DNA of 64,000 bases from assembly GCA_951406725.2 (NCBI GenBank), contig OX597820.1, positions 12,214,001 to 12,278,000 on the forward strand, given 5' to 3'. The stretch is from Octopus vulgaris (taxonomy: Eukaryota). Below, in pieces: positions 14,359 to 32,666 of this stretch. Below the pieces are notes generated by a model. It did not search any database. It was not told the DNA's origin and saw only the letters and a program-made list of their open reading frames with translations. The position numbers were made by a program, and so were the translations under genes. Positions within the stretch are counted from its first letter, which is position 1. Every line of letters starts with the position of its first letter.

Positions 14359-15340
14359 ATTTCTTTTATTGGCCACCAGGGTATAAAACCCTGGGGATAG
14401 TGCAAATATAATATACAAGACAGTGGAGAATTTACAGCGAGTAAAAAGAATAAATGAACAACATATGAAAATGGCAATATTAAAGAAACACCAATAAAAA
14501 CTTAGATAAAACTTAGATATGTTTCGACCAGAGATTGGTCCAGGCCATGTCTAACTTAATAGCACCACCTGATAGGATTATTCGAATCCTGTTTAAGTCA
14601 AGTTTTGTTCAAGTAGTGAGTTCTTGTTGGGTGAGTTGTATCCAGTTTTGTTCAAGTAGTGAGTTCTTGTTGGGTGAGTTGTATCCAATTATGGGTGGCT
14701 TATCTGGTATTCTTTGAAGGAATCTATCCAGACTCTGTTTGAAGTTGATGGGATCCTTTTCCTCTTTGATCTCCCTCGGGACAATGTTAAATAGGGCAGG
14801 GCCTGTTGAGGAAAAGAAATTATGTTGCAGTGTACATGTATGTTGTGATCTTGAATTTGGCAGGGGACGTATAGCCCGTGGTCCAAGTCTCGGATGAACC
14901 TTGAAGCTAATGTTTAGGTCGTTTGGGCAAAGTTGGCGGTATATTTTCCACATCGTACAAATGATGTACCGCTCACGGCGACGCTGGAGGGAGTAAAGTT
15001 TCAAGGCTTTAAGGCGTGTCGAAAACACAAGAAATAATACAATGACATGAAAGACTCCCCCCACCCAAATGAGGAGCAGTTAGAGGTACGCACACAGAGT
15101 TCCGGATGACTCTGACACGTCAAAGAAAATATTTCCTTCCAGTTCTTACTACTAGTCAATTGCCGCATGTTTACAATAGGCCCATTTACTACTCTCACCA
15201 AGTACCCCATTTACGCCAACTTTAACAAAATGCATCCACCCACTTTTTATGAAATTTACTGGAAAGTAGCGCCCTCTTTTAACTTTCTCTTCATTAAGGG
15301 CACGGCATGAGAAGAAGAGCCATACCTGAAAGTCTTTTAA
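14359..15340 (-). mobile_element. 3' end of Tx1/L1-like LINE, interrupted by a CR1 fragment
   Basis: Minus peptide QVWLFFSCRALNEEKVKRGRYFPVNFIKSGWMHFVKV resembles Tx1 ORF2 C-termini; 3' end reads CCCTGGTGGCCAATAAAAGAAAT. Confidence 0.5.
14498..15017 (-). mobile_element. 5'-truncated CR1-clade LINE (ORF2 C-terminus, 3' UTR, tail)
   Basis: ORF 14609-15064 carries RLKALKLYSLQRRRERY...GPALFNIVP...FKQSLDRFL, the CR1/L2-group C-terminal signature; 3' stem-loop GACCA-ATCTC-TGGTC and (ATCTAAGTTTT)2 tail. Confidence 0.9.
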
Positions 15341-18679: not shown

Positions 18680-19096
18680 AAACTTAGATAAACTTAGATA
18701 TGTTTCGACCAGAGATTGGTCCAGGCCATGTCTAACTTAATAGCACCACCTGATAGGATTATTCGAATCCTGTTTAAGTCAAGTTTTGTTCAAGTAGTGA
18801 GTTCTTGTTGGGTGAGTTGTATCCAGTTTTGTTCAAGTAGTGAGTTCTTGTTGGGTGAGTTGTATTCAATTATGGGTGGCTTATCTGGTATTCTTTGAAG
18901 GAATCTATCCAGACTCTGTTTGAAGTTGATGGGATCCTTTTCCTCTTTGATCTCCCTCGGGACAATGTTAAATAGGGCAGGGCCTGTTGAGGAAAAGAAA
19001 TTATGTTGCAGTGTACATGTATGTTGTGATCTTGAATTTGGCAGGGGACGTATAGCCCGTGGTCCAAGTCTTGGATGAACCTTGAAGCTAATGTTT
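18680..19096 (-). mobile_element. 5'-truncated CR1-clade LINE, near-identical to 14498-14916
   Basis: By eye only two substitutions and one tail indel versus the 14.5-kb copy; shares its 43-bp internal duplication. Confidence 0.9.
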
Positions 19097-19122
19097 ATAT
19101 ATACATATATATATATATATAT

Positions 19123-29589: not shown

Positions 29590-30142
29590 CACGCGCACGC
29601 GCGCACACACACACATACACATGTAATGTGTGTGTTAAAAGGAGTTCAATAAACAAAACTGACTCTTCACTACGTAAAGGACTCTGCGCGTGCTCGTTGA
29701 GTGAATAATATAATTAAGTTAATAAATGCTGTATATGTAGATTTATTTAACTTCTGGGGGGGGGGGGGATTTTCAAGCATCGAAAATGTATTTCTACGTA
29801 TAAATATCTGTGTGACTGTAGAACAAACGCTGGAACTGGCTAGGCCTTGTAAGAGAGAATTATGTAGGTATATATATATTTCTTTACTAAAAAATATCTA
29901 TACCAAAACCAAACACAAAATTAGTTCTAAAACTAATCCCATGAGTACAATTCTTTTCTCTTGGTTTGTATTAAACATACCGCTCATTCTGATTTGTACT
30001 AAATACACTGAACTCTCTCACACACCCAGATATAGCCACGCATTTCCGAAAATATCGACACAAACTTTTCAACGGTGTATTCACTATTATACATCAAGTC
30101 ATCAATAACTGACGCAAAGTGTATAATACTGTCCCACTGAAA

Positions 30143-31190
30143 ATGGCCAATAATATTCCAAAGCGCCACTGGGTAGAAAACGAAGTCAGTGCAATGATAA
30201 ACGCTTGGTACACTCATCATAACGATTGTGTAAAAGCTAATGTCTACGGTAAAATCGCTGAAAAATTAGCGTCTCAATCCTTTTACAGATCTATGAAACA
30301 GATCGAAAACAAAATAAATCACAAGATCATTTCATATTTTACACACGCACATGGCAACACTAGAAGCCATACTTGTCAATGGGTGTAGTGCACCGATTGA
30401 CCCAACTCCAACAGGTCAGGGGTCACTTCAACGACCCGCTAGCCAGCAACAAACAACATCCTCATTGATATCGCTATCTGACCTAATTCCACTGGCAAGC
30501 CAAGACTCACTACCACAACAACAACAGCCTGCTACTGCCACTACATTAGAGGCACCTTGTTTGGTACCACTATCTGACCTGATTCCACCCAGCCCTACTG
30601 TTGCAAGTCAAGTTTCACTGCCGCTACAGCAGCAGCAACAACAACAACAACAACAACAGCAACAACAACAACTGTCTGCTACTGCTACTACAGTAGGACC
30701 ACTGACCAACGAGCCTGCCAGTATAGCAAAACCTCTACTATACTCACGTCAAAAACCCTGTCGTTACCTTTCTCAAGGTAGCTGTAGATTTGGTCCCATT
30801 TTTCTATCCTGCCTTATGCCGTAGACTTGTTAAGGACACCTGTCCGTATGGTATAGCGGGAAAAAAACTGCTCTCACCTCTACCCCAAATATTGTCCTAA
30901 ATGCAGATTCCATGGTCCTGATCCTAAATATGGATGCACAAAAGGCAATGGATGCACCTTCTTAGATCCTAAACTATGCCAAATGTCTGTATCCCTAAGG
31001 CTGTGCTTGAACCCAGAATGCAACTACCACCATCTGAAGGGTAGAAAACGATCAAAAAATAAATATAAACAGCATTAGAGACCTACGACAACAGCAAAAA
31101 CAAAATACAGCCACATTTCACCTCCTACAACCAAACAACGAAGACAGTACTATGGGAAAACCATAACACCAAATAACATAAACATGAACT
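30143..31190 (+). pseudogene. Frameshifted LINE ORF1: Myb/SANT-like (trihelix) domain, poly-Q linker, tandem CCCH zinc fingers
   Basis: RHWVENEVSAMINAW...VYGKIAEKLASQSFYRSMKQIENKINH; then Q-rich ORF 30351-30824; then across frameshifts CRYLSQGSCRFG / LCRRLVKDTCPYGIAGK-NCSHLYPKYC...GCTKGNGCTFLDPKLCQMSVSLRLCLNPECNYHHLKG. Confidence 0.75.
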
Positions 31191-31823
31191 ATGTATCCTT
31201 TGACTAAGTGGCAAACCAAAGAGGCAACTCTTTTTACTAACTTATCTAGAAAATATGAAAGCCGACCTAAGCCAGGCGATCCAACGAGCTATCAGCAACC
31301 ATTTATGCAAAACACAAGGAACACCCACCCACCACCAACTAGAGAATCATACACACACAGTTCCATACAAAAACTACCCTCATTGCTACCTCTGATCAAC
31401 ATAAAACATAACTTAGAGCAATGCAAACATCAAACTACCCTTACGTCGTCATTCCTGTTAAATGTATGTGGCATCAACCCATCACTCATTGCCCTAAAAT
31501 GGAAGATCGCATATATAGAGAGTTCGCTTGCCGAAACGACACATTGCTTCCATTTCTTTATCCTTACTGAAACTCACCTAAACAACACACATATGGATGC
31601 CGAGGTGAAAATAAAAGATTTCACCATCGTTCGTGCAGATCGCACAGACCGAAATAAAGGAGGAATAGACATCTTTCTCCATGACTCCTTTTCAGTTGAT
31701 GCCAAGGACATATTTTCCAATGGCTATTGTGAATCTATATCACTGTTCAACAAAGCCAGGCCTCCCCAAGCACCTCTAAAGTGCATTGAAGAGTGCCTCA
31801 ACAAAATCAAGTCCTTCCTTTAA
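31191..31823 (+). pseudogene. LINE ORF2 N-terminus, truncated APE-type endonuclease
   Basis: Motifs LLNVCGI, ILTETHL, IVRADR...KGG, (Y)RPP; stops at the deletion junction. Confidence 0.85.
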
Positions 31824-32666
31824 AAATATAAAAGAGGAAAGGATCCCATCATCTTTAAACGGTGTCTGGACCGATTTCTTCAAGGAATACCGGATAAACC
31901 ACTCATACCTGAATACAACTCACTCAACAAGAACTCACTACTTGAATGGAACATCATATCACAAAACTTGACTTAAACAGTATTTAGATAATCCTATCAG
32001 CTGGTGCTATTAAGTTAGACATGGCCTGGACCAATCTTTGGTCGAAACATATCTAATTTTTATCTGAGTTTTAAAAGAAGTGAAAACAAAATCCAGAAAT
32101 GAATAGAAATAATAAAAATCTAATGAAAGAGAAATATTGATACATTAAATGTTGGCAATGAAATCTTGTCAGGAGATGTTTGCTAGAAAATGGTTAATGT
32201 ATTCAATATCTAGTAGCGTGAATATTGATTAAATTATTGGCTTATTTCCATTGATTTGATATAGATATTTTTAACAATATGGTGAATTGCATTGCGGGTT
32301 TAAGGAAGTTAAAATGATATTAAAATGGTAAATTACATTGTTGGTTTTGAATAGCTTGAAATGGTATTCCACAAACATTACCAATACAGCAATACTTTTC
32401 ATTCTACTATAGCCACCTTTGTAAAGATACTAGCTTGTTCTAACATACATAAAATAAATGAAATCATCGACCGACCATAACCACAACTACAAATGAAATA
32501 TACGGACAAACCGACAATTTCGGTCCGAATGATTAGAGAAAGATATGTACCCACATCAAAATAAAGCCCGCAGTACTGTGAAACTGTACATTTCACTTCG
32601 ATCCCCTTTAAAATATACTACATCAAACAACTGCGCGAGCACACACATACGCACACACACACACAC

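Follow-up and report, generated by a model that had tools for sequence, protein, structure and literature searches.

Does the first open reading frame (ORF1) of a LINE in Octopus vulgaris really join a Myb/SANT-like trihelix domain to CCCH zinc fingers, as a reading of the letters alone had proposed, and if so, how might the domain have been acquired and what could it do for the element? The host genome is 2.8 Gb and microsatellite-rich, and the DNA analyzed here, referred to as the window, is a 64,000 nt stretch of contig OX597820.1. Positions 29890 to about 32071 of the window hold a decayed member of a CR1-group LINE family, designated family A. It is about 85% identical to the nearest family A copies, and so is old and dead. 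Its parts, and two younger relatives nearby, are as follows.

14500–15016, minus strand: young, 5'-truncated family A copy, 99% identical to genomic copy L142.
18682–19097, minus strand: young, 5'-truncated family A copy with TA repeats on either side.
29890–30142, plus strand: remnant of the family A 5' UTR, about 190 nt lost, with a (TA)5 run just upstream.
30143–30318, plus strand: Myb/SANT-like domain (Myb_DNA-bind_4, trihelix) at the N-terminus of ORF1, from a PF13837 match (E 3.4e-9) and alignment to a natural copy.
30319–30758, plus strand: low-complexity linker of Q, P, S and T with duplicated SDLIP units and poly-Q, differing between subfamilies.
30759–31033, plus strand: four CCCH fingers, from alignment to intact copies and weak Pfam zf-CCCH matches.
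31034–31398, plus strand: basic linker and C-terminal helix of ORF1, common to PHD-type relatives and overlapping the ORF2 frame.
31455–31825, plus strand: N-terminal part of the ORF2 APE endonuclease, by alignment (in an intact copy, Exo_endo_phos_2 at E 2e-16 and RVT_1 at E 1e-30).
31826–31958, plus strand: C-terminal end of ORF2, following the loss of about 2.4 kb of internal sequence that included the RT (tblastn, residue 181 to 977).
31959–32071, plus strand: 3' UTR and degenerate (TTTTATCTAAG)n tail.

Alignment of the window copy to natural copies reveals three lesions in ORF1: 5 bp are deleted near 30318, where the frame of the Myb domain ends, 26 bp are deleted near 30800, and 1 bp is inserted near 30862. 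Because of these three lesions the parts of ORF1 lie in different frames, and the latter two disrupt the finger region, which in intact copies shows spacings of 7-12-3, 7-8-3, 13-5-3 and 8-4-3. Further stops follow the lesion near 30862, and ORF2 residues 181–977 are deleted (tblastn and alignment to natural copies), a loss of about 2.4 kb; the roughly 190 nt missing at the 5' end is judged against full-length family A copies, which begin about 440 nt ahead of the ATG. The elements named by the sequence-only reading, namely a Myb-like stretch at 30143, a repeated LSDLIP motif, poly-Q (here (CAA)n at 30636–30672), four CCCH fingers and a downstream APE, were all recovered, except that ORF1 extends to about 31398 rather than ending at 31045. 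A tandem duplication of 43 bp close to the 3' end is common to the two young copies and to family A copy L039.

The profile search favored by that reading gave PF13837 in the window copy at 37.4 bits, against a Pfam gathering cut-off of 27, along with weak matches to zf-CCCH. Family A copies L045 (43 bits) and L031 and L039 (29.9–30.1 bits) also exceed the cut-off, as does the domain of the sister family B when taken alone (27.6 bits); the youngest family A copy (L142, 23.9 bits), the whole family B ORF1 (23.6 bits) and a third family, D (17.3 bits), fall below it. Aligned by hhalign with five host Myb domains, the LINE domain gave 95.3% (E 2e-8). In the Atlas search, the first match was PF13837 (0.91), and all 10 family matches belonged to the same family or clan; the whole ORF1 returned no usable match there, and sequence searches of the PDB found no Myb, only chance matches to coiled coils and viral glycoproteins.

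Two genome-wide surveys bear on whether the Myb and the fingers belong to one element. With the Myb DNA as query, 134 candidates were obtained, 40 were scored and 30 loci were taken, all 30 of which continue into the same LINE linker. This also speaks against a PIF/Harbinger element, since the domain is not found as a separate Myb gene. Among 30 loci selected by the CCCH region, 20 keep a full Myb, two a partly deleted one, and the remaining eight are 5'-truncated with unrelated flanks. Copies that regularly start downstream of about 30350, which would have made the Myb an unrelated neighbor, are thus not the pattern found. In 13 distinct genomic copies of family A, the Myb ATG opens a natural frame that reaches the fourth finger without a stop; three of these copies lie within 180 kb of one contig and may be duplicates. 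The separate frames in the window copy could have been read as a chance juxtaposition or assembly artefact, with an unrelated Myb fragment beside a LINE. That explanation is refuted by the single open frame of these 13 copies, and by a family B contig from a public run that covers the Myb-coding region to the start of ORF2. The Myb/SANT plus CCCH architecture, in a single ORF of a CR1-group LINE, is real with near certainty.

The eight loci without a Myb were considered as a possible Myb-less subfamily, which was rejected as they are 5' truncations with unrelated flanks. Four of them (L054, L058, L066 and L073) are independent truncations whose starts, all in finger 1, fall within a span of 15 nt; TA arrays adjoin two of them, and a shorter TA run adjoins a third.

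Other properties of family A are those of CR1-group LINEs, with an ORF2 carrying APE and RT behind ORF1, a short tandem-repeat 3' tail, (TTTTATCTAAG)n, and frequent 5' truncation. Pfam matches to APE and RT were obtained for the ORF2 of L039, and long open ORF2 frames are also present in L141, L142, L145 and L158. The 3' ends of the youngest subfamily were 99–100% identical in 40 of 40 scored, from 1044 candidates, and the family is present in public runs under three organism labels. In this youngest subfamily (L101, L105, L106, L109 and L142), an extra half finger, from an internal duplication, precedes finger 1. In several copies of families A and B (e.g., L147, L208 and L234), ORF1 and ORF2 form one continuous frame (1036–1491 aa), probably through single-copy indels in a homopolymer.

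The Myb is found in three families of this genome, A, B and D. Family B has a Myb and two fingers; 150 of 150 scored Myb matches, from 760 candidates, were 96–100% identical, giving at least 150 near-identical copies. Among 16 copies picked by best Myb match, ORF1 is intact in all and both ORFs are intact in 11. The family is probably recently or still active. Full-length, near-identical copies of family B (e.g., L275:900-5700) number in the hundreds and often lie within very long (TA)n arrays, and the 5' UTR contains a tandemly duplicated unit. Family D is older, decayed and B-like. Identity between the ORF1s of A and B is only about 25%, and the 5' UTRs of the two families have no alignable DNA similarity. 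Among named proteins, the closest relative of ORF2 comes from Argonauta hians (60% identical), and in an RT tree of 38 rows, hand-picked from 120 listed matches and built with no L2, Crack or Jockey references, families A and B group with the Argonauta protein (support 100/99), while family C, introduced below, sits on a long, unsure branch. The RT region is 39–41% identical, over a long branch, to stork ORF2 proteins named hypothetical in the source, which we take to be CR1. The Proto2 and RTE-X clades were dropped on this RT likeness to the stork proteins, a choice made without reference sequences for either clade.

The likely origin of the Myb emerges from relatives of the finger module, which matches 1555 clusters. 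None of the best 150 of these has a Myb-family match by Pfam; 134 of the 150 fit the finger pattern, and 130 or more residues precede it in 85. In 77 of these 85 long relatives, a profile match shows a PHD-like finger at the N-terminus, and six of the other eight have a similar cysteine pattern by eye. Metagenome data agree: of 80 loci, four contain the CCCH module and none a Myb, and in three of the four (L351, L353 and L355) the module is accompanied by a PHD and followed by an APE-RT. The protein and metagenome collections searched are poor in animal transposon proteins, making the absence of Myb from them weak evidence, and the closest outside proteins (P0001, P0003 and P0004) have their N-termini missing. 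The converse also holds within family A, as our own PHD profile matched none of four family A ORF1s, and Pfam found no RRM, CCHC, Tnp22, PHD or esterase (ORF1 types I–IV) in the ORF1s of the family. With Myb in 0 of 150 relatives and a PHD-like finger in 77 of the 85 long ones, the Myb was very probably gained in place of an ancestral PHD, and the earlier proposal that a LINE had captured such a domain is borne out to that extent by the PHD its relatives carry at that position.

The alternative that the N-terminal helical domain of these relatives is itself a remote Myb was not supported, the best E-values being 0.03–0.08 in a set of 154 sequences. The helical-PHD-3xCCCH type of ORF1 (P0005–P0150, and L351, L353 and L355) is widespread, with 1555 clusters, and does not appear in the ORF1 table of PMC4120745, in the portion of that paper available; an OTU-like protease domain is additionally present in P0095, and two PHD units in L353.

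The octopus genome itself holds such an element. Family C has a helical-PHD-3xCCCH ORF1, which by sequence comparison appears to be the ancestral form, and an RT 47% identical to that of family A. Its 5' UTR is 72–80% identical to the 5' UTR, Myb and linker of family D, and the match stops 15 nt before the ATG of family C. The Myb relic has no start codon, and stops or frameshifts interrupt it in the seven family C loci with a full relic. These matches show transfer of a 5' module from D to C. The simplest reading would be that the common ancestor of A, B and D gained the Myb once and lost the PHD, and that the head of D later moved to C, where the PHD already present would have made the Myb redundant. 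The case shows how such heads move between LINEs, one 5'-module exchange being caught in the act. In L274 (reverse strand, 774–2036), the family C 5' UTR derived from the D promoter, Myb and linker includes a tandem duplication, and a stop two codons ahead of the PHD ORF1 keeps the Myb relic untranslated.

Decay in family C after such a capture is what might be expected if the Myb were a functionless passenger of a captured promoter. Comparisons between subfamilies of family A argue strongly otherwise. For the Myb of L142 and L154, dN is 0.09 and dS 0.555 (dN/dS 0.16, Fisher p 4e-5); for L142 and L031, dN/dS is 0.22 (p 6e-4), and for L154 and L031 it is 0.32, from few changes. Between families A and B, where dS is saturated and the finger alignment is poor, dN is lowest in the Myb among the parts of ORF1 (0.54–0.61 against 0.82–1.16). 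These ratios (0.16–0.32 between A subfamilies) indicate that the Myb is under purifying selection, and the domain is in frame in three families even with A and B ORF1s so diverged. A passenger role is largely refuted by the selection test and is very improbable.

The predicted fold of the domain varied with the alignment. From LINE rows only, AlphaFold gave one long helix (pTM 0.34); with 13 rows that included host Myb domains, an alignment that biases the outcome, it gave three helices (pTM 0.65). Foldseek matched the three-helix model best to the DNA-binding domain of Arabidopsis GT-1 (TM 0.75, E 0.09), with no match reaching E 0.001; the DNA-binding Zeste domain was also among the best fold matches, and SANT domains were found as well. 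The helix-1 tryptophan is kept in all aligned LINE rows except the single family D copy. At the position of the helix-3 tryptophan, LINE domains have I, T or L, host domains L113 and L114 have M, and host domains L111, L112 and L115 have W. The presence of SANT domains among the fold matches, the location of the Myb at the PHD position and the lower Pfam scores of young families compared with old A copies would all suit a SANT-type binder of proteins or histone tails, or an oligomerization surface, that replaced the PHD like for like and does not read DNA. Set against this are the DNA-binding nature of the GT-1 and Zeste domains and the conservation of helix-3 basic residues in families A and B, and we regard it as rather improbable.

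The closest motif in the genome to the LINE Myb is in an intron-containing, trihelix/MSANTD-like host gene (L114) with the domain at its start, which has the NWSDNE motif in common with family B. By motif similarity it is the nearest match, and as a donor it is an unproven candidate. L113 and L114 (G000:C26:2398725-2416923) are host exons for Myb_DNA-bind_4 that share 67% identity and are separated by 18 kb; a coiled-coil exon follows them. A search of the Myb alignment against longer proteins for a donor returned nothing at E 1, which is weak evidence, and no Harbinger donor of the LINE Myb was found. Acquisition may have occurred by 5'-end recombination, probably with the first exon of a host MSANTD/trihelix-type gene or with a Harbinger-type gene.

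Insertion sites were scored for (TA)n runs with n of at least 5 lying no farther than 30 nt from a junction, for which the background is 3.9–5.3%. At the 3' junction such runs occur in 15/16 family B copies, 14/30 of family A (14/25 in the long-locus set) and 5/27 of family C (30 loci, three without a junction match). Families B and C differ at p 2e-6 and A and C at p 0.03, in samples made up of full-length copies for B and of copies chosen by the 3' end for A and C. Family C, without a working Myb, is itself above background (p 0.004). At the 5' junction the counts are 11/19, 6/17 and 4/17 for B, A and C, with no difference between A and C (p 0.7). Target-site duplications are not reliably callable since the flanks are TA repeats. 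The sequence-only reading had suggested a possible coupling of RNA binding to target selection, and of this the bias stands, toward (TA)n and stronger in the Myb families A and B than in the PHD family C, whereas its dependence on the Myb does not follow, C being biased too.

In families A and B the terminal sequence of the tail is able to pair with AT repeats. A start in ATAT or TATA by itself gives a site a 43–50% chance of being at a long TA run. Nulls based on such short motifs reach 43–63% and are clearly exceeded only by family B (p 2e-4 to 6e-3; p 2e-4 for the TATA-start null). TA arrays may also grow after insertion. Because family C is biased as well and tail microhomology explains part of the effect, the contribution of the Myb is a correlation, with which the order B > A > C fits.

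In another explanation, the endonuclease, microhomology of the tail and later expansion of the microsatellites would account for all of the TA bias, and the Myb would regulate transcription by binding the 5' UTR or promoter of the element itself. The bias of family C without a Myb and the pairing capacity of the A and B tails are as it predicts. It also fits the movement of Myb and 5' UTR as one module and the faster divergence of the 5' part between A subfamilies (78–84% identity, against 90–98% in ORF2; dS 0.48–0.67 in the 5' part against 0.12–0.25), as expected under promoter turnover. It accounts less well for the excess of family B over the short-motif null, and for the retention of the Myb while the 5' UTRs of A and B have diverged beyond alignment. 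We consider it unlikely. We lean slightly toward the Myb being a DNA- or chromatin-docking module of the RNA-protein particle, kept by selection in the position of the PHD. In such a particle the CCCH fingers would bind the element's RNA and the C-terminal helix would oligomerize ORF1p, roles suggested by domain type, and the Myb would tether the particle to DNA or chromatin in the PHD's stead, possibly with longer residence on AT-rich DNA. The nick would most likely be set by the APE together with microhomology between tail and target. Specific reading of (TA)n by the Myb is doubtful. Equally tentative is the fullest version, in which a LINE captured a host-type trihelix into ORF1p and homes on (TA)n, and a mobile promoter-plus-Myb head underlies the recent burst of full-length copies. 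If true, target selection would lie with an RNA-chaperone protein and not with the nuclease. On whether ORF1 proteins help to choose LINE insertion sites, this genome offers a natural comparison, as it combines Myb families that are young and intact, a PHD family whose Myb is dead, and a graded (TA)n bias.

Several known systems resemble parts of this arrangement. In R2, the Myb is on the RT protein with zinc fingers, a single 28S rDNA site is targeted and the nuclease is restriction-like. TRAS has been ascribed a Myb-like region in ORF2, which the available passages of PMC2868851 do not confirm, and both Mino and TRAS belong to the R1 clade, their specificity being ascribed mainly to the endonuclease. 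The Myb-like accessory protein of PIF/Harbinger and host MSANTD/trihelix proteins are of the same Pfam family, the Harbinger one serving its mobile element as a separate helper that binds DNA. In family A, by contrast, the domain is fused to putative RNA-binding fingers in a retroelement with no DDE transposase, and unlike in R2 it is on a separate ORF1 protein of an APE element with a loose bias. Assignment to the R2 clade was rejected, as family A has two ORFs, an APE nuclease and dispersed sites. Mino and TRAS, as here, are APE-type elements that prefer simple repeats. The Myb of R2, a non-LTR element, is used in target-site recognition according to the available part of PMC11204384, and Mino is described as a microsatellite-targeting LINE (AC repeats) in that of PMC3124438.

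For the CR1 lineage, the accessible text of Metcalfe and Casane 2014 (PMC4120745) describes ORF1 types I–V, with PHD, RRM, CCHC, esterase, Tnp22, zf/lz and coiled-coil domains. It likewise describes two ORFs, an APE-RT ORF2 and a modular ORF1 shuffled between lineages, proposes that the PHD may help genome targeting (no functional study of the CR1 PHD being available at that time) and that ORF1s can move via 5' truncation and nested insertion. Unlike the ORF1 described here, those in its main text are nowhere associated with 'Myb' or 'CCCH', both terms occurring zero times, and 'Myb' is also absent from the main texts of PMC10294476, PMC9115989, PMC13343379 and PMC5203782, as far as these were available. 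LINEs with a PHD + 3xCCCH ORF1 are like family A in the CCCH module, C-terminal helix and ORF1/ORF2 overlap, and have a PHD, often after a helical domain, where family A has the Myb; no paper naming this type was found in the literature searched. Nor was a Myb-bearing LINE ORF1 found described there, within the freely available text; Repbase, Dfam, further supplements and subscription papers could hold such families. The combination is apparently an undescribed ORF1 architecture in a known kind of element. Copies of these families are also found inserted into each other and into another LINE (the 3' flank of L307, the 5' flank of L223, and L163).
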